Source: Escherichia coli
GTDB taxonomy: Bacteria > Pseudomonadota > Gammaproteobacteria > Enterobacterales > Enterobacteriaceae
Direction: 5' to 3' (one strand)
Assembly (NCBI RefSeq): GCF_011045215.1
Contig: NZ_CP049201.1
DNA length: 64,000 nucleotides
Part shown: one piece after another, positions 1,027-12,103 of the stretch
Numbering within the stretch: position 1 is the first letter of the stretch
How the letters are laid out: each line of letters starts with the position of its first letter
The notes under the pieces: generated by a model
Seen by the model: only the letters and a program-made list of their open reading frames with translations
Database searches by the model: none
What the model was told of the DNA's origin: nothing
Translations under genes and position numbers: made by a program

Positions 1027-1434
1027 TTATTTTATTGATTTATTTTTACGCGCTTTAAGCATTTCTTCGAAGAGTTTGTTGAAGTTTTCTACTCTTGCGC
1101 GCATTTCAGACAGCAAGGCTTCCTGCTCGGAAGATGGAAGAGCATCGAATAATTCGATCAATTCTTTGTGGTTGGGAGTTAGCTCTGTTTCCACATGAAG
1201 TTCTTGTGCAGGCACTGGTGCCTTGTCTTCATCACCAAACATTAGCCATGTAGGTGAGCACTTCAGAGCATCCGCTAAAGCAAACAATCGTTTTCCGACT
1301 GGCTGGGTTTCGTCTCTTTCCCATTGTGAAATTGTGACGTGAGCAACTCCAGCGAGGCGCGCAGCTTCTCGTTGTGTTAAGCGTAATTCTTTTCGTCGCG
1401 CCAGAACTCGCTGGCCTAGGGTTCTTGTATCCAT
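1027..1434 (-). CDS. dicA: DicA-family HTH (Cro/C1-type) prophage repressor, 135 aa
   Basis: Translation ...LTQREAARLAGVAHVTISQWERDETQPVGKRLFALADALKCSPTWLMFGDEDK...MRARVENFNKLFEEMLKAR matches recalled DicA in length and motifs; divergent from a Cro-like gene. Confidence 0.85.
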   Translation of the reverse strand: MDTRTLGQRVLARRKELRLTQREAARLAGVAHVTISQWERDETQPVGKRLFALADALKCSPTWLMFGDEDKAPVPAQELHVETELTPNHKELIELFDALPSSEQEALLSEMRARVENFNKLFEEMLKARKNKSIK

Positions 1435-2247: not shown

Positions 2248-3193
2248 ACGCCCACTGGTTATAAACACGCAGCTGGCAATGAAAATCGGCTTAAACGAAG
2301 CCATTGTTTTGCAACAACTGCACTACTGGTTGAGAGATACCAACTCCGGTATGGAATGTGATGGTGTTCGCTGGATTTATAACACAACGGAACAATGGCT
2401 GGAACAGTTCCCATTCTGGTCAGAGTCAACGTTAAAACGCGCGTTTGCAAGTCTGAAAACGCTGGGGCTTTTGCGTTGTGAAAAGCTCAATAAATCAAAG
2501 CGCGATATGACCAATTTCTACACGATCAACTATGGGAGCGAGCTTTTAGATGGTGGCAAATTGAACGAATCCATCGGTTCAAAATGCGCCGCTCCATCAG
2601 GTCAAAATGACACGATGGAAGAGGTCAAAATGAAACGCTCCATTGGTTCAAAACGACCCAATGTCATCGGGTCAAAATGGCCTGATGATCTTACAGAGAA
2701 TACAACAGAGATTACTACAGAGAATAAAAACACTTTTCGTCCGGAAGCTTCGCAACCGGACCCGCAGACGACTGAACAGGATTTTTTAACCCGGAACCCC
2801 GACGCGGTTGTGTTTAGTGTGAAAAAACGCCAGTGGGGTAGCAGGGAGGATTTGGCGTGTGCGCAGTGGATTTGGGGGCGGATCGTGAACCTTTACGAAC
2901 AGGCTGCCAGCGACGATGGAGAGATCATGCGACCAAAAGAGCCTAACTGGACAGCCTGGGCCAATGACGTGCGCACAATGCGGATGCTGGATGGCAGAAG
3001 CCACAGACAAATTTGCGAAATGTTTGGTCGGGTACAGCGGGATCCATTCTGGGTAAAAAACATCATGAGCCCGTCAAAACTCCGCGAAAAATGGGACGAA
3101 CTGGTCATCCGCCTGGGACGTTCACCTGTACAGCGTTGTGTGAATCATATTTCTGAACCGGATACAGAAATTCCGCCTGGTTTCAGAGGATAA
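2228..3193 (+). CDS. Phage replication initiator (lambda O-like), contains internal origin iterons
   Basis: Internal ATG at 2228 (M19 of ORF 2174..3193); gene contains five 23-bp-spaced iterons plus an AT-rich tract, the hallmark of O-type initiators. Confidence 0.6.
   Translation: MSLLFAERPLVINTQLAMKIGLNEAIVLQQLHYWLRDTNSGMECDGVRWIYNTTEQWLEQFPFWSESTLKRAFASLKTLGLLRCEKLNKSKRDMTNFYTINYGSELLDGGKLNESIGSKCAAPSGQNDTMEEVKMKRSIGSKRPNVIGSKWPDDLTENTTEITTENKNTFRPEASQPDPQTTEQDFLTRNPDAVVFSVKKRQWGSREDLACAQWIWGRIVNLYEQAASDDGEIMRPKEPNWTAWANDVRTMRMLDGRSHRQICEMFGRVQRDPFWVKNIMSPSKLREKWDELVIRLGRSPVQRCVNHISEPDTEIPPGFRG
2570..2679 (+). repeat. Origin iterons: five copies of ~TCCATCGGTTCAAAATG at ~23-bp spacing, followed by AT-rich tract 2690..2740
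   Basis: Copies begin at 2570, 2593, ~2616, 2639, ~2663; then acagagaatacaacagagattactacagagaataaaaac. Confidence 0.6.
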
Positions 3194-3233
3194 GTTTTGA
3201 TTTCAGGTCATGAGGTAATTTTAAGGGGGACTT

Positions 3234-3635
3234 GTGGCAAAAGTTTTTACACAAGAAGAGCGGGAAAAAATTAAAGGGCAGGTGGTGGAACTCGTGCGCC
3301 AGAGCGGTCGTGAGACGTTACGGCAACTGGAAGCTAAAACAGGTGCGACTAGATATCTGATGAGCGTTCTTGCCAGAGAGCTGGTAGCCAGTGGCGATGT
3401 ATACAACTCCGGCTACGGGTTATTCCCGTCTGAACAGGCGCGTAAGGACTGGCAAAACGCCCGCAAAAAACTATCGAGGGCAAAGGTGAAGAAAACAGCT
3501 GTGGTTGATCCGGACCTTATCTGGTCGTTACCTGATGGAGAAATACGTCGCTACGACAGTCGCCTAAACATAATCTGTCGCGAGTGCCGGATGAGTGAAG
3601 TTATGCAGCGCATACTGGCATTTTATCAGGGATAA
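3234..3635 (+). CDS. Hypothetical phage protein (replication-region, P-position), 133 aa
   Basis: ORF with GGGGGA RBS-like sequence upstream; no motif recognised. Confidence 0.45.
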   Translation: MAKVFTQEEREKIKGQVVELVRQSGRETLRQLEAKTGATRYLMSVLARELVASGDVYNSGYGLFPSEQARKDWQNARKKLSRAKVKKTAVVDPDLIWSLPDGEIRRYDSRLNIICRECRMSEVMQRILAFYQG

Positions 3636-3831
3636 TGTTAGGTATTTTAGACGTTACTAGATTAAAAAGCATTAGTTCAGGAGTGAATTGACATTCTCAT
3701 TTTTCATGGCACAGGGTAGATCTGGCGTGGTTGTCCGCTTTGTGCCAGAAGCGGACATAGCAGGTGCCAGATGCATTTGTTATTCTTCATTGAATTGAGC
3801 AGTATCCTTAACAGGAACTCTGAATACATAA

Positions 3832-4470
3832 ATGAAGATGAAAAACATGTCTGAAGTGTTGACCCAAGAAAAGCTTATTTTTGTTGCCCAGAGACTAAAG
3901 GCCCTCGCGCAGTCAGGCCTGACCTATTCAAAAGACGTCTTTGACAAGGAACGCTATGAAGCCTTGCGTGAAATTGCCGCTGGACTGCTGAGTTCGCAGT
4001 TTGATATTAGCCGCAATGATTTGTTTCATGTATCGGAAACGGGTTACGCGACGCCCAAAACAGATGTGCGTGCGTTTATCCTGCGTAATAATCGTATTCT
4101 GATGGTGAAAGAGGCTGCAGATGGATTATGGAGTCTTCCTGGCGGATGGGCAGATGTTGGAGATACACCTTCTGAAGCTGTGCGTCGAGAGGTCGAAGAA
4201 GAAACCGGATTAAAAGTCAGAGTGACTAAACTATTGGGAGTTTGGGATCGTAATCTTCACGGCCATCCGCCTTTACCCTGGCATGTTTACAAGCTGATTT
4301 TTCTCTGTGAAGAAGTAGGTGGCAGCCTGTCAATCAGCCATGAGTCACTCGATGCTGATTTTTTTGATGTCAACGACCTGCCTGAATTGTCGCTTTCAAG
4401 AATTGTGCCTGAGCAGATTGCTGTCAGCCTGAGAGTAGCGAAAGGTGATGAAAAAACATGGTTTGATTAA
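3832..4470 (+). CDS. NUDIX hydrolase with N-terminal extension (ADP-ribose pyrophosphatase-like)
   Basis: Nudix box visible: GGWADVGDTPSEAVRREVEEETGL; ~90 aa N-terminal domain as in ADP-ribose pyrophosphatases. Confidence 0.8.
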   Translation: MKMKNMSEVLTQEKLIFVAQRLKALAQSGLTYSKDVFDKERYEALREIAAGLLSSQFDISRNDLFHVSETGYATPKTDVRAFILRNNRILMVKEAADGLWSLPGGWADVGDTPSEAVRREVEEETGLKVRVTKLLGVWDRNLHGHPPLPWHVYKLIFLCEEVGGSLSISHESLDADFFDVNDLPELSLSRIVPEQIAVSLRVAKGDEKTWFD

Positions 4471-4493
4471 CTTTCTTCTGCAACCATTAAGGA

Positions 4494-5138
4494 ATGGCAA
4501 TGATATTCAACGCTAAGGGTTTTTTATTCGATATGGACGGTACGCTGGTTGATTCAACAGCCGTAGTGGAAAACGTCTGGAGAGATTTTTGTGCAGAATA
4601 CGGTCTTGATTCTCAGGCTGTGATTGCTTACGCACACGGGCGGCAAACGATTGATACACTAACGCATTTTATTGGTGCAGGTGAGAAAACCAATAAAATC
4701 GCGGCCTCACTCGAAGAGGTTGAAATCAACACGACAGAAGGCGTTACTGAAGTAAAAGGGGCCGCTGCACTCTTATCAAAACTGCCACCGGATAGCTGGG
4801 CACTTGTCACTTCTGCAGGCAGAATGCTTGCCGAAAACAGGATGAAAGCGGCTAATCTCCCCTTACCCAGAGTAATGGTGTGTGCAGAAGATGTAATGAC
4901 GGGAAAACCAAGTCCCGAGGGTTACATCAAAGCAGCTTTGGCTTTGGGCCTTGAGCCTGGTGAATGCGTGGTATTTGAGGATGCATCTGCGGGTATAAAA
5001 GCAGGGCTGGCAAGTGGAGCTTCGGTAATAGCTGTTCAGCCTGACGCTCTGGGATCATCTGAAGCCCATGCCGTCAGCGAACTGTCTGACATTATGGTCA
5101 AGATTTCCGGAGAACGTTTCAATATCATCTGTGGTTAA
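4494..5138 (+). CDS. HAD-superfamily (subfamily IA) hydrolase/phosphatase
   Basis: HAD motif I FDMDGTLVDS near N-terminus; C-terminal motifs (VVFEDASAGIKAG). Confidence 0.8.
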   Translation: MAMIFNAKGFLFDMDGTLVDSTAVVENVWRDFCAEYGLDSQAVIAYAHGRQTIDTLTHFIGAGEKTNKIAASLEEVEINTTEGVTEVKGAAALLSKLPPDSWALVTSAGRMLAENRMKAANLPLPRVMVCAEDVMTGKPSPEGYIKAALALGLEPGECVVFEDASAGIKAGLASGASVIAVQPDALGSSEAHAVSELSDIMVKISGERFNIICG

Positions 5139-5687
5139 TCACGTTACACAATACGCATCAATGGACGCTGAGTAGTTCGCGAGTTTTAAACTTCCAACGT
5201 CCGCTTTTCGCTCAAAGCGGACTAGAAGGTTAGCTTGTATCGGACTTTGCGTATTAAATGACTAGTGGTTGAGCCCCATTTCCACAGAAAAAATCAGAGA
5301 AACTATACCCAATAGTTGTATTGAATCACTGACGAGACAGCCTCATATTCATCAGGACTGGTGTACGTCCAATACAGGAGGTTGTGGTGCTGGTTCTCAA
5401 ATGTGCGCTGGCTATTACGGCTGTAATGGCGATTTATTGTCTTGCTATTGTTCTTATGGATCGCCTTTCTGACTGATTTCATATTGGCGAGGTAACGGTA
5501 GTTAAGTAGAATGGCTGCGGGTGCTTGAGGCTATCTGCCTCGGGCATGAACACCAACGGCAGATAGAGAAAAGCCCCAGTTAACATTACGCGTCCTGCAA
5601 GACGCTTAACATTAATCTGAGGCCAATTTCATGCTAGACACATGTAGGTTAGCCTCTTACGTGCCGAAAGGCAAGGAGAAGCAGGCT

Positions 5688-5843
5688 ATGAAGCAGCAAA
5701 AGGCGATGTTAATCGCCCTGATCGTCATCTGTTTAACCGTCATAGTGACGGCACTGGTAACGAGGAAAGACCTCTGCGAGGTACGAATCCGAACCGGCCA
5801 GACGGAGGTCGCTGTCTTCACAGCTTACGAACCTGAGGAGTAA
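5688..5843 (+). CDS. hokD: Hok/Gef-family type I toxin (HokD/RelF-like), 51 aa
   Basis: Translation MKQQKAMLIALIVICLTVIVTALVTRKDLCEVRIRTGQTEVAVFTAYEPEE matches recalled HokD; in-frame upstream extension from 5631 is mok-like; sok antisense expected ~5600..5700 on minus strand. Confidence 0.85.
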   Translation: MKQQKAMLIALIVICLTVIVTALVTRKDLCEVRIRTGQTEVAVFTAYEPEE

Positions 5844-5911
5844 GAGACCCGGCGAGGGATAAATCCCTCGCCACCTCTGATGTGGCAGGCATCCTCAACG
5901 CACCCGCACTT

Positions 5912-5939
5912 AACCCGCTTCGGCGGGTTTTTGTTTTTA
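5912..5939 (+). terminator. Rho-independent terminator of hok mRNA
   Basis: Hairpin acccgcttcggcgggt followed by tttttgttttt; preceded by a second hairpin 5851..5872. Confidence 0.6.
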
Positions 5940-6059
5940 TTTTCAACGCGTTTGAAGTTCTGGACGGTGCCGGAATAGAATCAAAAATACTTAAGTAGCG
6001 CGCAGGGATAAGAGGGATGGTCCCTTAAAGGGGAGAGCTAATTATCCGGAAGGATTCTG

Positions 6060-6311
6060 ATGATGAACATCGAAGAACTGCGTAAAATTTTTTGTGAAGA
6101 TGGCCTCTATGCTGTGTGCGTTGAAAATGGAAACATTGTTAGTCATTACCGCATTCTGTGTTTGCGAAAGAATGGGGCTGCGTTAATTAATTTTATGGAT
6201 GCTCGGGTCACGGACGGATTTATCTTGCGCGAAGGTGAGTTTGTCACTTCATTACAGGCACTGAAAGAGATCGGAATAAAAGCAGGCTTTTCAGCTTTTG
6301 CAGAAGAATAA
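6060..6311 (+). CDS. rem: Rem-like small prophage protein, 83 aa
   Basis: 83-aa ORF with GGAAGGA RBS upstream; position after hokD as rem in Qin; length matches recalled Rem. Confidence 0.55.
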   Translation: MMNIEELRKIFCEDGLYAVCVENGNIVSHYRILCLRKNGAALINFMDARVTDGFILREGEFVTSLQALKEIGIKAGFSAFAEE

Positions 6312-7709: not shown

Positions 7710-8069
7710 TTGTGGAGAAAGTTGATGCGTGATATGTATGAAGTTTTAGACCGCTGGGGAGCGTGGGCTGCAGCAGATAACAGTGGTGTGGACTGGCAGC
7801 CGATAGCAGCAGGCTTTAAGGGGCTTTTACCTCATGGTAAAAAAATACGCCTTCAGTGTGATGATGATGAAGGCATCATGATAGACGGCTGTGTTGCCCG
7901 CCTGTGTAAGTATAAACCAGACGAATATGAGCTGATCATTGCTCACTTCGTTATAGGTATTTCACTGCGTTCTATTGCGAAGAGACGCAGATGCTCAGAT
8001 GGAACAATCCGGAAGCAATTGCAGACTGCGTTAGGTTTCATTAATGGGGTTATGTACATGCTCAAGTAA
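7710..8069 (+). CDS. Phage antitermination protein Q-like, 119 aa
   Basis: Small basic protein with Cys cluster and C-terminal HTH-like segment (IAHFVIGISLRSIAKRRRCSDGTIRKQL), at the canonical Q position upstream of the lysis cassette. Confidence 0.6.
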   Translation: MWRKLMRDMYEVLDRWGAWAAADNSGVDWQPIAAGFKGLLPHGKKIRLQCDDDEGIMIDGCVARLCKYKPDEYELIIAHFVIGISLRSIAKRRRCSDGTIRKQLQTALGFINGVMYMLK

Positions 8070-9288
8070 TATTTGGCATTAATTTAAATAAAATACCGAT
8101 GATGCCTATGAATGTAGGCATCCATGCTAGTGATAATAAACTGTCAAGCACCTTATGACAAAAATCCTCATTGTCATTTAATTTTTTAATAGCCTCTTCT
8201 AAGCTCTCTTTAAGATCGCTGGTGTCATCCTTTATTCTATATCTTAATTGTCCAAAAAGTATTTCTTTAGAGTGTGAAATACGAGCAAGTTGTTTTTTTT
8301 GTGACACAATCATTGCAGATGTTATTATTGCTGTGATAATCAATCCAATTAAAGCAATAATCCAATCAGCTTTTGTTGTTAATTTGAAAATAGCAATTGA
8401 ACCAGCTAGTGAAATAGGTATTGCAAGAGCTTTGTTAGAAATTTCTGAAATTATTTTTGACAGTTTTTCTGAGTAATCGAGTTCAGCATCAACAACTTCT
8501 TTCCTTGCTTTATGAAAAGAAAATGCCGATATATAAGCAGCTAAGTTGTTCGTATAAAGTTCGCATATGAAATCCCACTTGTTAATTAACTCGACAAAGG
8601 AATTTCCATTTTTATTAACATACTCAATAACTGTGTTTCTGAAAGTGTTAATCTTTTCAATGTGATGGGCATCAGTAGTAGCTTCACTACTTACTAATGT
8701 TTTAACTAACTGAGTATTTACTGTTTTATCATTAAAAATTTCTTCTGTAATATTTGTTTCAATTACAGCAGAAGAAGATTTAGACTCTGAGTTTAAAATA
8801 AAGACTAAACGATAAAATGTACCTTTGCTATCTTTTTTTATATCATGGAAATGAGCAAGCATGGAAAGAGCATTGATTAGCTCACAAATGTCCTCAATTT
8901 TTTGGATATAAGAAGGTTTTGGTGTTTCTAATGAATAGAAATCATCCTCTATAATATAGAAATACTCTGGCATTATGCCTTTCTTGAGCGTGTTTATTTT
9001 TACAAACTCGTTTTTATTTTTATAAAAACGATTCGCACTTCCTTGTGAAATTTTAAACGAGTATGTAAGAAAATTTCCCTTTTCAGGAAAGTCTTCATAA
9101 TCATAAATTAAATGACCATCCACCTCTATTTCGTCAGCTGTACCAGCTTGAAAAGTAGGGTTCAAAATTCTTTTGAACAATGATTTTACGTCTGCATTAT
9201 AAGCTATACGCGCAGAAAACTTAGCCCCGTCAAAATGAGGATAGCTTGATAATCTATACAGATTAACTATTATACTAAAATCATTCAT
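8062..9288 (-). CDS. Membrane protein, 408 aa, three predicted TM helices in C-terminal third; candidate effector of two-gene cassette
   Basis: ATG overlaps upstream gene stop (ATGA at 9285..9288); hydrophobic helices (ALAIPISLAGSIAIFKL, WIIALIGLIITAIITSAMIV, LLSLAWMPTFIGIIGILFKLM); AT-rich codon usage. Confidence 0.7.
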   Translation of the reverse strand: MNDFSIIVNLYRLSSYPHFDGAKFSARIAYNADVKSLFKRILNPTFQAGTADEIEVDGHLIYDYEDFPEKGNFLTYSFKISQGSANRFYKNKNEFVKINTLKKGIMPEYFYIIEDDFYSLETPKPSYIQKIEDICELINALSMLAHFHDIKKDSKGTFYRLVFILNSESKSSSAVIETNITEEIFNDKTVNTQLVKTLVSSEATTDAHHIEKINTFRNTVIEYVNKNGNSFVELINKWDFICELYTNNLAAYISAFSFHKARKEVVDAELDYSEKLSKIISEISNKALAIPISLAGSIAIFKLTTKADWIIALIGLIITAIITSAMIVSQKKQLARISHSKEILFGQLRYRIKDDTSDLKESLEEAIKKLNDNEDFCHKVLDSLLSLAWMPTFIGIIGILFKLMPNIT

Positions 9289-10451
9289 TCTTTATCTTCT
9301 TCATTACTCGGGTTATCAGTTTCTTTCAACGCTCTTCTTATCTTAGTTAATGCTTCAACAGGCAAATTATTAAATGTTAGGCTTTGGTTTTCGTCATCAT
9401 AATATATTTTAGCATCAGTTGTGACACCGAGTAAATCCTTGTCGAAGTGAAAGCTCAATGATGGGGTTTTATATATCACATTGCGGATTTTATCTAAGGA
9501 GTTTTTATTGATTACGAACTCTGATGGGATTCTGACTTCCTCACTATTGAGGTGTTTCATTAATTTATCAACAAGTTCTGTTTTTTCTTCCTCTTTTAAA
9601 TAGGACATATGGCCTGAAGCAAGCGATTCGATATCAGAAAGCCTTGCAGAGTGCTCGTTGTCAAATTGCTTTTCTAAGTATTTGATAACATCATTTCTAA
9701 ATGACTCTGCTTGATTTTTTAAAAGAGGTTCTTTCTTAAAGAAACGCCTTATTTCATCTGGTAACTTACGGGTTGCGCCTGCTGAAGCAATCCCCTTGTC
9801 ACATCCTAATGCTGCTATAAAATATGCTGCCGCTGACTGTCCCGTAGTTTTGCTTATAAAGCTTAGATAACTTAAGTCTGTTTTTTTTAAATCATCTGCT
9901 TTTTGGTATTCTTCATAATATCTGAAATTTATTTTTGCTGCTTGGTTAATATTACCAAGTTCTAAGTGAATCATTTCCTCTGGCTCTAAATTTTCACTAA
10001 TAGTTACGCCATTAGTTTTTTTGATCATTGTAACCAATAGATAACGGAAACCAGATAAAATATAATCAGTAAAAACAACATATCCTCCAGAAGCCCAAAT
10101 CTGCTCTTGAGCAGATTTATACATTTGTTTCATAACTTCCTTCGATAATTCAATGAAATCATTTGAAACAGATTGTTGAACTAAAGAGTATTTATGAAAT
10201 AGTTCTGGTATAGGGCCTTGTTTTGTTTTATTTTTAATAAAAACACCATAATGCGCTGAGTTCCCTTTTGAACCATACAAATCAATAACACCGTCTACTA
10301 ATTTTTTTACTATATCATTTGTTTTATCTAGTTCTGTATCACGAAGATTGTATGGTTTGGAGTGATCGAAGTCTTTATTAGATTCTTTTAAGAGCTCATG
10401 AACGATTACGTGGCGTATGCTTGCTTTGCTCATTTTTTTGGTCAATTCCAT
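9285..10451 (-). CDS. NdpA/YejK-like (NA37 family) nucleoid-associated-protein homologue, 388 aa; candidate sensor of two-gene cassette
   Basis: Motif-level resemblance to recalled E. coli YejK: N-terminal IRHVIVHELLK, central GGYVVFTDY...YLLVTMIK...ISENLEP, YLSFISKTTGQSAAAYF, C-terminal SLTFNNLP. AT-rich (~30% G+C in a 60-nt spot check). Confidence 0.75.
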   Translation of the reverse strand: MELTKKMSKASIRHVIVHELLKESNKDFDHSKPYNLRDTELDKTNDIVKKLVDGVIDLYGSKGNSAHYGVFIKNKTKQGPIPELFHKYSLVQQSVSNDFIELSKEVMKQMYKSAQEQIWASGGYVVFTDYILSGFRYLLVTMIKKTNGVTISENLEPEEMIHLELGNINQAAKINFRYYEEYQKADDLKKTDLSYLSFISKTTGQSAAAYFIAALGCDKGIASAGATRKLPDEIRRFFKKEPLLKNQAESFRNDVIKYLEKQFDNEHSARLSDIESLASGHMSYLKEEEKTELVDKLMKHLNSEEVRIPSEFVINKNSLDKIRNVIYKTPSLSFHFDKDLLGVTTDAKIYYDDENQSLTFNNLPVEALTKIRRALKETDNPSNEEDKE

Positions 10452-11050: not shown

Positions 11051-12103
11051 ATGAAAAATACTGTAAAAATAAACAGTGTTGATTTAATCAACGCTGATTG
11101 CCTGCATTTTATTCAGTCCTTGCCTGATGATTCCATTGATCTGATTGTTACCGATCCGCCGTACTTCAAAGTGAAGCCCAACGGCTGGGACAATCAGTGG
11201 AAAGGGGACGAAGATTACCTGAAGTGGCTGGACTACTGTCTGGCCCAGTTCTGGCGGGTACTGAAACCAGCCGGAAGCCTTTACCTGTTCTGTGGACATC
11301 GCCTGGCATCTGATATTGAGATCATGATGCGTGAACGTTTCAACGTGCTTAACCATATCATCTGGGCGAAGCCGTCCGGACGTTGGAATGGGTGTAATAA
11401 AGAAAGTCTGCGCGCATATTTTCCTGCCACAGAGCGCGTTCTGTTTGCTGAACATTACCAGGGGCCATATCGCGGCAAAAGTGACGGCTATGCGGCAAAA
11501 GAAAGGGAACTCAAACAGCACATAATGGCACCGCTGATATCGTATTTCAGGGATGCTCGTGCCGAACTGGGTATAACGGCAAAACAAATTGCCGAAGCCA
11601 CAGGTAAGAAAAATATGGTTTCCCACTGGTTTGGTGCCAGTCAGTGGCAGTTGCCGAATGAGGCTGACTATCGGAAGTTACAGGCACTGTTTTCCCGTAT
11701 AGCGGCAGAGAAGTTTCAGGAACAACAACTGGAACAACCACACCACCAGCTGGTGGCATCTTATGATTCACTGAATCGCAAATATTCTGAATTGCTGGAT
11801 GAGTTTAAATCTCTCCGGCGCTATTTCTCCGTATCAGTCTCCGTGCCTTATACCGATGTCTGGATGCATAAACCCGTTCAGTTCTACCCGGGTAAACATC
11901 CGTGTGAGAAACCTGCGGATATGCTCCGGCAAATAATCAATGCCAGTAGTCGACCTGGTGATCTGGTTGCTGATTTTTTTATGGGATCCGGTTCCACAAT
12001 AAAAGCAGCAATGGCGCTGGGGCGTCGGGCCTTAGGTGTTGAGCTTGAGTCAGAGCGGTTTAACCAGACAGTGAAAGAGATATACGAGCTGGTGGGGAAA
12101 TAA
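11051..12103 (+). CDS. Orphan DNA N6-adenine/N4-cytosine methyltransferase (beta class)
   Basis: Catalytic DPPY motif near N-terminus (LIVTDPPYF) and AdoMet-binding FxGxG near C-terminus (DFFMGSGST); no cognate endonuclease gene adjacent. Confidence 0.85.
   Translation: MKNTVKINSVDLINADCLHFIQSLPDDSIDLIVTDPPYFKVKPNGWDNQWKGDEDYLKWLDYCLAQFWRVLKPAGSLYLFCGHRLASDIEIMMRERFNVLNHIIWAKPSGRWNGCNKESLRAYFPATERVLFAEHYQGPYRGKSDGYAAKERELKQHIMAPLISYFRDARAELGITAKQIAEATGKKNMVSHWFGASQWQLPNEADYRKLQALFSRIAAEKFQEQQLEQPHHQLVASYDSLNRKYSELLDEFKSLRRYFSVSVSVPYTDVWMHKPVQFYPGKHPCEKPADMLRQIINASSRPGDLVADFFMGSGSTIKAAMALGRRALGVELESERFNQTVKEIYELVGK

Follow-up and report, generated by a model that had tools for sequence, protein, structure and literature searches.

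A NUDIX-HAD gene cassette in an Escherichia coli prophage, bounded by REP/BIME-like hairpins and probably exchanged within them

Background

Work on P2, P4 and other hotspots reports that their cargo is swapped extremely fast, by a mechanism stated to be unknown, and that systems almost identical to each other are found in unrelated mobile elements and in "cryptic" places on chromosomes. The locus studied here lies in a 64-kb window (by the window we mean the whole stretch of E. coli DNA analysed) and raises this question in a concrete form. Two adjacent genes, for a NUDIX hydrolase and a HAD phosphatase, stand between two short hairpins in a lambdoid prophage, and we ask what the hairpins are, how the genes between them may be exchanged, and what the gene pair may do. 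The explanation that we favour as a whole, with fair confidence, is a hairpin-bounded moron with REP/BIME-like boundaries, with exchange taking place inside the hairpins, and with a UDP-X/CDP-X type NUDIX hydrolase and a HAD-IA phosphatase as cargo.

Results

The cassette and its slot

The region is a gene cassette (moron) in the hypervariable slot of a lambdoid, Qin/Rac-like prophage, the slot extending from the DUF977 gene to hok/sok. Its features are as follows.

3234..3635, + strand: DUF977 (replication P-like) gene of the lambdoid early operon, the left anchor of the slot; context, excluded from the cargo; from the RefSeq annotation of identical loci.
3733..3756, + strand: class-1 boundary hairpin, GTCCGCTT-TGTGCCAG-AAGCGGAC; homology to the P2-like phage copy starts at 3733.
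3757..3831, + strand: cassette leader, preceding the NUDIX gene and included in the mobile unit; also conserved as leader in chromosomal NUDIX cassettes.
3832..4470, + strand: NUDIX hydrolase, 212 aa, with a helical Nudix_N domain and a Nudix fold; from Pfam, PDB matches, subfamily motifs and PHROG 25541.
4494..5138, + strand: HAD-IA phosphatase, 214 aa, sugar/glycerol phosphatase-like by sequence; from Pfam HAD_2, NCBIfam and PDB matches.
5199..5222, + strand: class-2 boundary hairpin, GTCCGCTT-TTCGCTCA-AAGCGGAC; homology to the P2-like phage copy stops at 5223.
5223..5262, + strand: 18-nt spacer (tagaaggttagcttgtat) and, after it, what may be a class-1 unit in decay (cggactttgcgtattaaatgac); from visual comparison with the doublet consensus.
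5519..5843, + strand: hokD/sok type I toxin-antitoxin locus, the right anchor of the slot; context, excluded from the cargo.

The right anchor consists of sok, detected in an Rfam search of the window (RF01794, 115 bits, 5519-5693), and the hokD ORF at 5631-5843, for which the ORF list and the RefSeq annotation agree. Between the two anchors at least ten alternative cargos are found, that is, a variable gene block between conserved phage genes, as in other morons. SIR2 and HEPN genes are among the cargos of this slot, a P-loop ATPase is among those of the slot and related arrays, and a related array carries the validated defence gene PD-T4-3. The first-pass annotation had compared the position of the NUDIX/HAD pair with that of the relBE-type cargo in the K-12 Qin prophage, and the comparison holds because in Qin relB-relE lies directly upstream of hokD, the gene at which the present slot ends.

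The coordinates of the two genes, together with the Nudix box and FDMDGTLVDS, agree with the first reading when checked in the sequence and the translations, while the N-terminal domain of the NUDIX protein, first put at ~90 aa, is corrected to ~70 aa. Pfam assigns residues 14-61 to Nudix_N and residues 77-184 to NUDIX, with an intact Nudix box, GWADVGDTPSEAVRREVEEETGL. The leader has counterparts at two other loci (ataaattatgcaagatggatatgtt in L247 and ataaatggtgctggctgcatctgttatt in L255), and the promoter scan gives no strong sigma-70 match within it.

The two boundary hairpins

The left hairpin reads GTCCGCTT-tgtgccag-AAGCGGAC and the right one GTCCGCTT(T)-tcgctc-(A)AAGCGGAC. The pattern GTCCGCTT-N4-10-AAGCGGAC occurs exactly twice in the 64 kb, against 0.00 expected from shuffles, and no further hairpin copy is found in the window at up to six mismatches. 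Folded as DNA, the two hairpins have energies of -11.1 and -9.0 kcal/mol, with z-scores of -4.3 and -3.0. Neither is followed by a T-run (the following bases are atagcagg and tagaaggt) and the terminator scan calls neither, so that the positions and the missing T-tracts originally described are both confirmed. The description of the hairpins as near-identical flanking copies needs some change: such copies are present, but a single 24-nt unit present in both orientations describes them better, the left hairpin having three mismatches to the reverse complement of the right and five in direct orientation.

Beyond the right hairpin, 5223..5262 may, with low confidence and judging from the letters, be what is left of a backbone doublet (class 2, spacer, class 1). 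The spacer length fits the 33-43 nt start-to-start spacing of such doublets, and the decayed unit falls outside the 8-mismatch threshold.

The same segment in unrelated contexts

From hairpin to hairpin (3733..5223) the segment is found with 99.2-99.6% identity in at least five unrelated contexts, with flanks that have no homology. In a megablast search with 3640-5300, the P2-like phages P24C9 and 10W match query positions 94-1584 only, which are 3733-5223 of the window, with 99.3% identity; their copy sits between the tail-fibre-assembly gene G and the sheath gene FI, which is the Z/fun hotspot. Other copies lie in a lambdoid tail-end context (L129, 99.6% identity), in an integrase island (L130, 99.2%) and in another viral contig (L080). 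Degraded copies also exist, the HAD gene being truncated in L130 and the NUDIX gene lost to IS3 in L131. On the whole, about 21 of 5426 E. coli genomes carry the cassette. The proposal of a discrete mobile module is thus borne out, and the search for the same hairpin-bounded module elsewhere, suggested at the outset, leads to five contexts including the P2-like Z/fun hotspot.

Junctions inside the hairpins

Across the five contexts the inner arms and the loops are constant and the outer arms differ. The left outer arm reads GTCCGCTT, GTCCGCTC, GTCTGCTC or TTCTGCTT depending on the context, and the right outer arm AAGCGGAC, AAGCAGAC, CAGCGGAG, TAACAGAC or TAGCAGAC. When seven cargos in the same lambdoid slot are compared, it is the outer arm that is common to all and the inner arm that differs. 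A position-wise test, whose sequence pairs share phylogeny and are non-independent, agrees with this. When a cassette is compared between contexts, the differing hairpin positions are 1, 4, 8 and 9 in class 1 and 16, 17, 19, 21 and 24 in class 2; when different cassettes are compared within one context, the pattern is mirrored. In the class-1 hairpin, then, the slot keeps the left arm and roughly the first two bases of the loop, and the remaining loop and the right arm move with the cassette; in the class-2 hairpin, the left arm and most of the loop move with the cassette, and the right arm belongs to the slot. Since the outer arms follow the genomic context and the inner arms follow the cassette, the exchange is placed within the loops.

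A dispersed family with a strict grammar

The two hairpins belong to a dispersed family of extragenic palindromes of 24 nt, in which two arms of 8 bp enclose a loop of 8 nt. The loops fall into two classes, TGTGCCAG and TTCGCTCA, each being approximately the other in inverted form, and a strict grammar governs their order: class 1 is followed by the cargo, then by class 2, a spacer of ~18 nt and another class 1. Split pairs (class 1 to class 2) have a single gene or a small operon between them, and class 2-spacer-class 1 doublets stand between transcription units. This is reflected in the intervals, as those from class 1 to class 2 (n = 93) have a median of 1280 nt with none at 60 nt or less, and 47 of the 61 from class 2 to class 1 are at 33-43 nt; orientation is mixed in 12 of 216 in this interval census. 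The doublet folds into one long hairpin (-17.2 kcal/mol, z = -3.3).

The family is widespread. The motif is present in more than 120 IMG/VR contigs, and the two classes occur across enterobacterial prophages, plasmids and chromosomes, with a clean three-cassette array in one lambdoid nin-like region (L031). Genomes of Pantoea, Erwinia, Mixta and Chimaeribacter contain the exact class-1 24-mer in multiple copies, with at least four on separate stretches in single Pantoea genomes. The doublet is found in 737 plasmids, intergenic and unannotated, at up to seven places per Pantoea megaplasmid. In E. coli the family is accessory, present in 976 of 5426 genomes (18%) at 1-4 intergenic, unannotated places, with a median of one place.

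Many other cargos are enclosed by these two classes, whether in this slot, at P2 Z/fun or in cassette arrays, and cargo-less doublets stand between ordinary genes on plasmids and chromosomes. The first-pass annotation had taken the hairpins as the boundary of this module, and had counted it against that view should they prove to be ordinary terminators conserved without the genes. They do bracket the cassette; however, they are not specific to it and are indeed conserved without the genes, yet the missing T-tract and the conserved loop sequences set them apart from ordinary terminators. Overall, the family behaves like REP/BIME elements, a label that is based on this behaviour.

The NUDIX protein and its subfamily

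The UDP-Xase/CDP-Chase subfamily of Nudix hydrolases is defined by four motifs and a length of 200-210 aa (PMC3655063), and all four motifs are present in the NUDIX protein. The HLH-region motif G-U-X-Xar-X2-D-X-Xar-D-X-[E/D]-R-Xar is matched by GLTYSKDVFDKERY in the translation; the hinge motif YXTP appears as YATP and the C-terminal LPXLS as LPELS, both aligned with their counterparts in 3q1p; and the signature G-Xar-Xsm-[E/D]-U-X2-[S/T]-X2-E-X3-K-E-U-X-E-E-X-G-U is matched by the Nudix box with one conservative K-to-R change. The ORF has 212 aa, and its orthologues 207-209 aa. Its PDB matches are CDP-Chase 3q1p (E=7e-50), 3o8s (E=4e-42) and UDP-Xase 4hfq (E=2e-37). The profile and structure search to which the subfamily had been left therefore points to CDP-Chase and UDP-Xase structures as the nearest, and by motif the protein appears to be a member of the UDP-X/CDP-choline diphosphatase subfamily. 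The characterised enzymes, UDP-X diphosphatase of S. pneumoniae (SP_1669, 4HFQ) and CDP-Chase of B. cereus (3Q1P), are of the same length class and two-domain architecture, whereas the family was called Gram-positive-restricted in PMC3655063 and the present protein and its orthologues are enterobacterial, with K changed to R in the signature. Subfamily enzymes act on pyrimidine NDP-X substrates, form an asymmetric homodimer, hydrolyse UDP-X or CDP-choline and have 3'-5' RNA exonuclease activity (PMC3655063).

Models of other activities stay far under their NCBIfam cut-offs, both for the ADPR-specific equivalogs (NudE 19 bits against 169; NadM/Nudix models 23-28 against 354-449) and for the NAD diphosphatase NudC (27.9 against 158). 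Phage Nudix proteins linked to ADPr belong mostly to the T4 NudE and NadM clades (PMC9503650), and the present protein lies outside these two clades, which contain most phage Nudix proteins.

The HAD partner and the gene pair

The HAD protein carries FDMDGTLVDS (motif I), VTSAG, GKPSPEGY and EDASAGIKAG, as a HAD-IA protein should, and is matched by TIGR01509 HAD-SF-IA-v3 (61 bits, above the cut-off of 29.4) and Pfam HAD_2 (E=2e-22). It scores under the curated cut-off of every NCBIfam equivalog; for the sugar phosphatase PRK11587 (HxpA/YfbT equivalog NF008610) the score is 191 bits against 282, so that the two are similar without being equivalogs. Its best PDB match is yeast glycerol-3-phosphatase 2qlt (E=1.6e-22).

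The NUDIX and HAD genes are kept together in chromosomal-like contigs at 80-91% and 72-89% identity, respectively, and two of these contigs carry the same hairpins. In other Enterobacterales, chromosomal orthologues of the NUDIX gene are accessory genes near LysR regulators, dehydrogenases and transporters. The NUDIX gene is also found alone, as a single-gene cassette between doublets (L247), and because remoter orthologues (~70% identity) have no HAD partner, the pairing is perhaps partly fortuitous. The cargo would be a small operon that was a chromosomal accessory unit beforehand.

Discussion

How the exchange may work

In the explanation we favour, recombination inside the hairpins would swap cassettes among lambdoid and P2-like phages, integrase islands, plasmids and Enterobacterales chromosomes; the outer arm would remain with the recipient, and the inner arm and most of the loop would go with the cargo. 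The preferred mechanism would be hairpin-focused short-homology recombination or template switching during phage replication, with a dedicated trans-acting recombinase as a close second. Several cargos of the same slot, namely an alpha/beta hydrolase, a methyltransferase and a DUF7167 block, have no recognisable hairpins beside them, which means that exchange in the slot does not oblige hairpins; among related lambdoid phages, flank homology can do the job there.

The simplest objection, that the hairpins are incidental, either ordinary intrinsic terminators or chance palindromes beside two genes inherited vertically in the phage lineage, is very hard to maintain. It is true that they sit at gene ends with GC-rich stems, and that REP-like elements can modulate transcript 3' ends, but the lack of a T-tract or a terminator call, the two occurrences where 0.00 are expected by chance, and the conservation of the loop sequences all speak otherwise, and the annotated V-operon terminator of P2 is a different sequence, located inside the cassette. 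Vertical inheritance fits badly with a cassette in so few E. coli genomes, at 99% identity in at least four unrelated contexts, and the mobility, shuffle, junction and interval results already contradict this explanation. A much stronger competitor, though still a tentative one, is a dedicated cassette-exchange system, in which the 8-8-8 hairpins would be core sites of a putative trans-acting site-specific enzyme, a host or phage protein of the tyrosine recombinase or hairpin-nicking HUH type, with the arms proposed as binding sites and the loop as the crossover region. The two loop classes would then be heterospecific inverted sites, and therefore a double exchange would swap cassettes in fixed orientation. 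Much in the data would suit such a system: the architecture is exactly that of 8-bp inverted arms around a conserved 8-nt centre, the junctions fall in the loop for both classes at mirror-equivalent positions, the loop is conserved as sequence, which would be unusual in a purely structural hairpin, the grammar and orientation are strict, distant taxa hold identical 24-mers, and transfer takes place between replicons with no other shared homology; published work, moreover, leaves room for it by stating the mechanism of rapid hotspot exchange as unknown. Other results speak against it. No recombinase is encoded in, or consistently beside, the cassettes examined, and a crude search of 2.1 Mb of loci gives no Y1/RAYT ORF, that is, none with the RAYT signature HUH...Y-x-x-[NQ]-P. 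By eye the sites have no likeness to dif/XerCD, attC (GTTRRRY) or hix sites, and the loci examined contain no empty single-hairpin site or loop-less palindrome. Finally, the junction interval is the longest stretch of identity between diverged hairpins, so homology-dependent crossovers would fall there anyway.

What the cargo may do

Predictions of substrate for Nudix and HAD proteins are notoriously unreliable. A pyrimidine nucleotide-sugar or nucleotide-alcohol, and not an ADP-ribose-derived signal, is the likely substrate. The predicted chemistry has two steps, in which NDP-X would be cleaved to NMP and X-phosphate, and X-phosphate then to X and phosphate. The cargo is probably a catabolic pair for nucleotide-sugars or nucleotide-alcohols. 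The first-pass annotation had offered two uses for the pair, the degradation of immune signals and metabolic cargo, and the latter seems to fit better, given the subfamily motifs and the chromosomal orthologues among metabolic neighbours.

The former, a counter-defence module hydrolysing ADP-ribose-derived or cyclic-nucleotide immune signals (those of Thoeris, CBASS, Pycsar or NADase products), appears quite improbable, even though phage Nudix, Macro and NADAR proteins have been proposed to counter ADPr-derived signals (PMC9503650), the cassette occupies early-region and hotspot positions where conflict genes gather, and some source databases label its homologues "ADP-ribose pyrophosphatase". 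The motifs and the nearest solved structures indicate CDP-choline and UDP-X diphosphatases instead; the NudE and NadM-Nudix scores of 19-28 bits are far from cut-offs of 169-449; the ADPr-linked phage enzymes are mostly of other clades (PMC9503650); and the orthologues are chromosomal, in metabolic neighbourhoods. In addition, the cassette resides in prophages, where its expression would benefit the lysogen, and degraded copies exist. Degradation of ADPR, cADPR or cyclic-nucleotide signals accordingly finds no support in the motifs, scores and neighbours considered here. Less improbable, but still unlikely, is prophage defence or lysogenic conversion by metabolite depletion, the pair draining a nucleotide-sugar or nucleotide-alcohol pool needed by superinfecting phages or for receptor biosynthesis. 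Candidate pools would be UDP-glucose, UDP-MurNAc-type, CDP-glycerol and CDP-choline-type compounds, for example UDP-glucose for T-even hmC glucosylation, or surface glycan precursors. A solved family member does hydrolyse UDP-glucose and Mur-pathway intermediates (PMC3655063), P2 Z/fun is a recognised defence-type hotspot, a HAD-containing system of a P4 hotspot protects against T7, and the NUDIX domain weakly matches the PADLOC single-gene candidate PDC-S07 (E=6.6e-10). But PADLOC-DB 2.0 gives no system-level match, and for the HAD protein no match at all; the chromosomal orthologues resemble housekeeping accessory genes, and a constitutive drain on envelope precursors would be costly. Because PD-T4-3, SIR2 and HEPN, as well as the P-loop ATPase, are cargo in the same slot or in related arrays, we keep a conflict-related role in view beside the catabolic one.

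Comparison with known systems

In its slot the cassette resembles phage morons and the P2 Z/fun locus (Juhala/Hendrix; Nilsson 2004, Rousset 2022, de Sousa 2026), with a non-essential block between conserved genes and variable cargo. The very same cassette is in Z/fun of P24C9 and 10W, and the two hairpin classes also flank the fun(Z) block of P2 itself. The accessible papers on the P2 hotspot make no mention of hairpins, inverted repeats or a boundary element and state the exchange mechanism as unknown, whereas the boundaries here are set to within a few bases and are common to P2-like and lambdoid phages.

Like REP, BIME and REPIN elements, the hairpins are short imperfect palindromes, intergenic and at operon ends, on some replicons in several copies, and form inverted two-unit doublets that fold as one long hairpin. 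Unlike E. coli REP, to which they are unrelated in sequence, they are low-copy and strain-variable in E. coli, on prophages and MGEs. The published GTAG/CGTC REP families have 4-5 nt loops and stems starting with AT, and the present family fits neither cleanly; CGTC families are published without transposases, and the CGTC tag is found in only some copies here. To our knowledge, classical REPs have not been reported as cassette boundaries in phage genomes.

The pdif modules of Acinetobacter carry a cargo of one to a few genes, including toxin-antitoxin pairs, between inverted XerC/XerD-type sites. They share with our cassettes the two short inverted sites, each with inverted arms around a short centre, the presence of a module in many unrelated replicons and the lack of a recombinase inside; however, our sites are 8-8-8 and not 11-6-11, have no similarity to dif (GGTGCGCATAA-TGTATA-TTATGTTAAAT), and are hosted by Enterobacterales phages, plasmids and chromosomes. 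With integrons and attC the family shares arrays of mostly single-gene cassettes with imperfect palindromes between them, junctions inside the palindrome, so that each cassette has parts of two sites, and a doublet that can fold as stem, internal bubble, stem and loop. Unlike integrons, there is no IntI among the neighbour genes of the loci examined and no attI or GTTRRRY/RYYYAAC core at the hairpins, cargo orientation is variable (P2 fun(Z) and the P22H4 cargo run on the other strand), and the hairpin arrays are short and inside phages. PeSL (promoter-early stem-loop) repeats contain an early promoter and occur in T4-like lytic phages only, while the hairpins here have no recognisable promoter and occur also in plasmids and chromosomes. 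The likeness is in conserved stem-loop repeats that flank small cargo ORFs in a phage genome; in T4-type phages PeSLs reportedly (Arbiol and co-workers, 2010) flank small ORFs in hyperplastic regions and were proposed to serve modular shuffling.

Implications

As to the proteins, the UDP-Xase/CDP-Chase Nudix subfamily is extended by motif to the Enterobacterales and their phages. The cargo matters less than its boundaries, a conflict-related role being a candidate suggested by genomic company. The cassette gives a concrete handle on hotspot exchange, namely a short conserved hairpin pair with a strict grammar and junctions mapped to the loops, and P2-like phages, lambdoid phages, plasmids and chromosomes have these boundaries in common. 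Should the hairpins be the exchange sites, accessory and defence cassettes could be delimited and predicted computationally, and transfer between phage families without flanking homology could be explained. If a dedicated system should prove to be at work, single-operon cassettes, including those with PD-T4-3, SIR2 and HEPN, would be swapped with fixed polarity across the Enterobacterales, and this would supply the missing mechanism for the fast cargo turnover in phage hotspots.

Prophage setting and the two hairpins

The genes under study form the early operon of a Qin/Rac-like lambdoid prophage, in the order cI-like repressor, cro, YdaT-like, O-like, DUF977, two cargo genes, hok/sok, rem, DUF968 and Q-like. 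The first-pass annotation had placed a NUDIX and a HAD-IA gene in the position held by relBE-type cargo in the K-12 Qin prophage, and on both points it holds: Pfam recovers the two genes at 3832-4470 and 4494-5138 respectively, and in Qin relBE lies directly upstream of hokD.

Features of the early operon and of the cassette
1027-1434, minus strand, cI-like repressor
3234-3635, DUF977 (P-like) gene
3733-3756, left hairpin (exact)
3832-4470, NUDIX ORF (Pfam Nudix_N at residues 14-61, NUDIX at 77-184)
4494-5138, HAD-IA ORF (Pfam HAD_2; all four HAD motifs legible in the translation)
5199-5222, right hairpin (exact)

The pattern GTCCGCTT-N4-10-AAGCGGAC occurs twice in the window, against 0.00 occurrences expected by shuffling, and a search of the whole 64 kb, including the low-GC block at 8-10.5 kb, gives no further copy of either unit at up to 6 mismatches. 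The DNA folding energies are -11.1 kcal/mol (z -4.3) for the left hairpin and -9.0 kcal/mol (z -3.0) for the right. As had been noted from the sequence, both lack a T-tract; the terminator scan calls neither, and we therefore reject the reading of the hairpins as terminators. An Rfam search of 3500-5700 (E up to 10) returns sok only and no family covering the hairpins. By-eye comparison likewise rejects attC/integron, dif/XerCD, hix/gix and fim sites, whose sequences are unlike these. The class-1 loop contains GTGCCAA, the core of the sfx sites of the R64 shufflon; since the arms show no relation, the match is regarded as coincidence. The minus strand of the same loop reads TGGCAC, as in a sigma-54 -24 element, but TTGC is absent at the correct spacing and this candidate is rejected as well.

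Farther along, immediately past the DUF968 and Q-like genes, the minus strand carries a pair of overlapping ORFs (408 and 388 aa) at 8062-10451, with a GC content of 0.30-0.35 vs 0.47-0.54 in the surroundings. Neither has a PADLOC match, and the block has the look of a further foreign moron or of an uncharacterised two-gene system. Next to it, at 11051-12103, is a type II DNA methyltransferase gene.

The same cassette in unrelated places

Searched by megablast against phage records, the P2-like phages P24C9 and 10W match only positions 94-1584 of the query, that is, window 3733-5223, at 99.3% identity, and the limits of the match are exactly the first base of the left hairpin and the last base of the right one. 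In these phages the cassette sits between the tail-fibre-assembly gene G and the sheath gene FI, an interval which is the classical Z/fun variable locus. It is also found in a lambdoid prophage, at its tail-fibre end and adjoining the pao genes (L129), in an integrase island with the HAD gene truncated (L130), and in another viral contig (L080). In one copy (L131) an IS3 element has replaced the NUDIX gene. Among complete E. coli genomes the full module is rare, being present at ≥80% coverage in 18 of 5426. The proposal of a discrete mobile module is thus borne out and sharpened, the segment from hairpin to hairpin recurring in unrelated contexts.

In the P2-like Z/fun slot (L001/L126-L128) the outer arms, on the side of the genomic context, continue into a longer inverted repeat, aatctgacaGTCCGC ... 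GCAGACtgtcagatt, which looks like one long hairpin split by the cargo. In addition, TGGCACAG occurs upstream of the class-1 (left-type) hairpin in both the lambdoid slot (window 3707-3714) and the P2 Z/fun slot (~26-28 nt upstream in L126/L127/L128), and is missing in the other three cassette contexts; it is complementary to the class-1 loop (C)TGTGCCA, so that an alternative pairing or pseudoknot would be possible.

Exchange junctions within the hairpin loops

Each unit is of 24 nt, with an 8-bp arm, an 8-nt loop and an 8-bp arm. When five cassette contexts are aligned, the loop and the inner arm, toward the cargo, are invariant (tgtgccag-AAGCGGAC on the left and GTCCGCTT-ttcgctca on the right), while the outer arm varies by context, being GTCCGCTT, GTCCGCTC, GTCTGCTC or TTCTGCTT on the left and AAGCGGAC, AAGCAGAC, CAGCGGAG, TAACAGAC or TAGCAGAC on the right. 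The cassette interior diverges by only ~0.4-0.8% across contexts vs 1-3 changes per 8-nt outer arm, hence the outer-arm changes cannot be mutation after transfer; in L129, 5 of 16 outer-arm positions differ (P < 1e-6 by a rough binomial estimate). The reciprocal pattern is shown by seven cargos in the DUF977|X|hokD slot, where the outer arm and the loop start (..gtggttGTCCGCTTTG..) are kept and the inner arm differs by cargo (AAGCGGAC, GAGCAGAC, GAGTGGTC, GAACTGAT or AACCAGAT), with the mirror image of this pattern on the right side. A position-wise count over all non-redundant hairpins collected is given below.

Positions of the 24-nt unit at which paired hairpins differ (pairs are phylogenetically non-independent, so the counts are a description and carry no P-value)
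Same cassette, different context, class 1 (27 pairs): 1, 4, 8, 9
Same cassette, different context, class 2 (29 pairs): 16, 17, 19, 21, 24
Same context, different cassette, class 1 (52 pairs): 12, 16, 17, 21, 24
Same context, different cassette, class 2 (86 pairs): 1, 2, 4, 6, 8, 9

This pattern places the switch from context to cassette inside the 8-nt loop, at equivalent positions in both classes if the units are read inward. The exchange junctions therefore lie inside the hairpin loops.

A hairpin repeat family with a grammar

The hairpins are not specific to the module; they are instead generic, REP/BIME-like cassette boundaries around many cargos. Among the matches listed, the exact pattern is found in at least 120 IMG/VR contigs, in a wide range of unrelated flanks. 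Two loop classes are distinguished, with the consensus YRTGCCAR for class 1 and NTCGCTCW for class 2, the latter being nearer to the reverse complement of class 1 (3 mismatches) than to class 1 direct (5). A class-1 unit has a class-2 unit after it in the same orientation only where a cargo intervenes (93 intervals, none at ≤60 nt, median 1280 nt). From class 2 to class 1 there is a short spacer, the starts lying 33-43 nt apart in 47 of 61 intervals; orientation is seldom mixed (12/216). The class 2-spacer-class 1 arrangement, here called a doublet, folds into one long hairpin (-17.2 kcal/mol, z = -3.3). The grammar is clearest in L031, a clean array 1,2,1,2,1,2,1 with three one-gene cassettes, whose E. 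coli counterpart (L140) has, in a lambdoid prophage, the replication genes on one side and Q on the other; and the same two classes surround three different cargos in P2 (fun(Z)), P22H4 and P24E6b.

The family behaves like REP, BIME or REPIN elements, yet it is no clean member of the described REP families. The CGTC REP family has loops of 4-5 nt, unlike the 8-nt loops here, and the CGTC/GTAG superfamilies (PMC3733652) are rejected because they differ in loop length and in the rules for the stem. A crude motif search for a RAYT/Y1 transposase ORF gives 0 candidates in 2.1 Mb of loci.

The family is by no means limited to phages. The exact class-1 24-mer is found in 106 stretches of species-representative genomes, mainly in Pantoea, Erwinia, Mixta, Chimaeribacter, Yersinia, Enterobacter and Atlantibacter; single Pantoea genomes have several copies, which lie on megaplasmids and on large contigs of the chromosome. 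The doublets of [Erwinia] mediterraneensis stand between ordinary accessory operons (an ArsR block, AraC+LysE, a phytase-like gene, LysR). The 87-nt doublet is present in 737 plasmids (Klebsiella 519, Pantoea 107, Enterobacter 54), always in unannotated intergenic DNA and at up to 7 places per Pantoea megaplasmid, with neighbours such as trehalose-6-P synthase and an AraC regulator, or a VOC protein and a GntR regulator. In E. coli it is accessory, occurring in 976 of 5426 genomes at a median of one place.

An identical class-1 24-mer was unexpectedly met in Hyphomicrobiales, Bradyrhizobium, Rhodospirillaceae and Oceanospirillales (the loci include L145, L169, L172, L173, L176, L177 and L153-L155, and also L070, L071, L119 and L016 from IMG/VR), together with close variants having loops such as TGGGTCAA or TGGGCCAA. 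These distant units are often doublets ~46 nt apart in high-GC DNA, creating spurious ORFs such as MSAFGGKADI.

Cargo enzymes and their origin

The closest solved relatives of the NUDIX protein are the B. cereus CDP-Chase 3q1p (E=7e-50), the S. suis protein 3o8s, whose deposited name is ADPR pyrophosphatase (E=4e-42), and the S. pneumoniae UDP-X diphosphatase 4hfq (E=2e-37); it scores far under the cut-off of the ADPR-specific NCBIfam models. The UDP-Xase/CDP-Chase subfamily is defined by four motifs (PMC3655063), and the protein has all of them: GLTYSKDVFDKERY, YATP and LPELS, and an extended Nudix signature in which one K is replaced by R. Phage Nudix proteins fall for the most part in other clades, of which T4 NudE and NadM are typical (PMC9503650). 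For the HAD protein, the nearest model is the YfbT/HxpA-type sugar phosphatase (191 bits vs a cut-off of 282) and the best solved relative is yeast glycerol-3-phosphatase. A reasonable chemical reading is a two-step breakdown of NDP-X, in which the NUDIX enzyme is predicted to cut a pyrimidine NDP-X into NMP and X-phosphate, and the HAD enzyme would then cut X-phosphate into X and phosphate. The suggested action against nucleotide signals of host immunity is unsupported, and is disfavoured by the subfamily assignment.

At ~70% identity, the NUDIX orthologues stand alone on the chromosomes of Cedecea, Pseudescherichia, Leclercia, Pantoea, Kluyvera and Sodalis, with varying neighbours and no HAD partner beside them, which weakens the idea of a co-evolved two-gene system but does not abolish it, since the pair is kept in three other, chromosomal-like neighbourhoods (NUDIX 80-91%, HAD 72-89% identity). 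Two of these three (L255 and L254) carry class-2 and class-1 hairpins at the ends. In L247 the cargo between two doublets is NUDIX by itself, a single-gene cassette whose leader is homologous to 3757-3831. Such hairpin-bounded units in chromosomal-like contigs indicate that the cassette was already an accessory unit ahead of its entry into E. coli phages.

Two further loci are recorded here. On the [Erwinia] mediterraneensis chromosome (L189, 8942-9708), a doublet-rich region contains a gene closely homologous to the HAD gene of the window; this gene seems to be broken into two ORFs, perhaps through a frameshift. In the chromosomal-like contig L252, at 2906-3823, a tyrosine recombinase of the Phage_int_SAM_2/Integrase_1 type adjoins a diverged, hairpin-less NUDIX-HAD pair; this is a single occurrence.

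Other cargos and a possible link to defence

Alternative cargos of the DUF977|X|hokD slot include SIR2, HEPN, a Sll1717-type P-loop ATPase, DUF5677, QueH, an alpha/beta hydrolase, a methyltransferase and several unknowns. PD-T4-3, a GIY-YIG protein whose anti-phage function has been validated by experiment, is the fourth cargo of the L031 array (5402-6229; PADLOC E=1.7e-137), thus at least one known defence gene rides in such hairpin cassettes. PADLOC gives no match for 8 of 10 sampled cargos and no system-level match for the NUDIX-HAD pair, and no NUDIX+HAD system is listed in the supplements of Rousset 2022. The company in the slot is suggestive of conflict genes, but is not diagnostic of such a role, because the repeat family also brackets chromosomal regulators and transporters.

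The QueH cargo, an epoxyqueuosine reductase homologue at 700-1365 of L135 (E. coli ST131 EC958), occupies the slot in many ST131-type genomes likewise. It is an odd cargo and might be related to 7-deazaguanine metabolism or modification.

How the cassettes may be exchanged

Two mechanisms are considered for junctions within the loops. The exchange may be passive, with short-homology recombination (Red/RecT/Rap-type) or template switching resolving within hairpins that would stall replication or form secondary structure. This accords with the hairpins being the sole homology between otherwise unrelated replicons, and with the loop and adjacent arm being the longest identical stretch between diverged copies. 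The hairpins as sites of an active, site-specific exchange system also fit the data: the architecture is 8-8-8 with loops conserved in sequence, the junctions are mirror-equivalent, there are two heterospecific classes, and polarity is strict. The closest analogues of such a system would be pdif modules and integron cassettes.

What tips the balance between the two counts against the active system: no candidate enzyme is found, neither an empty single-hairpin site nor a circular junction is seen, and some slot cargos have no hairpins at all. A search of 2.1 Mb of loci for the loop-less or short-loop palindrome GTCCGCnn-N0-5-nnGCGGAC gave nothing relevant. The only "empty" P2-type site found, in Yersinia phage P37 (L125), lacks both hairpins together with the whole segment and ~60 bp to either side, and is therefore no demonstration of a single-hairpin empty site. 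For the three reasons named first we give slightly more weight to passive exchange.

Significance

The exchange mechanism at such hotspots is called unknown in the hotspot literature, the accessible part of which mentions no boundary element. For the hairpin sequences themselves our search found no relevant paper. To judge by its title, Nilsson et al. 2004 may already have noticed flanking repeats at Z/fun, and no priority is claimed for the P2 part of the hairpin boundaries. The cargo here is ordinary and the boundaries are the interesting part: what appears to go beyond the prior literature we found is a set of elements common to lambdoid phages, plasmids and chromosomes, with a defined grammar and with the junctions in their loops.
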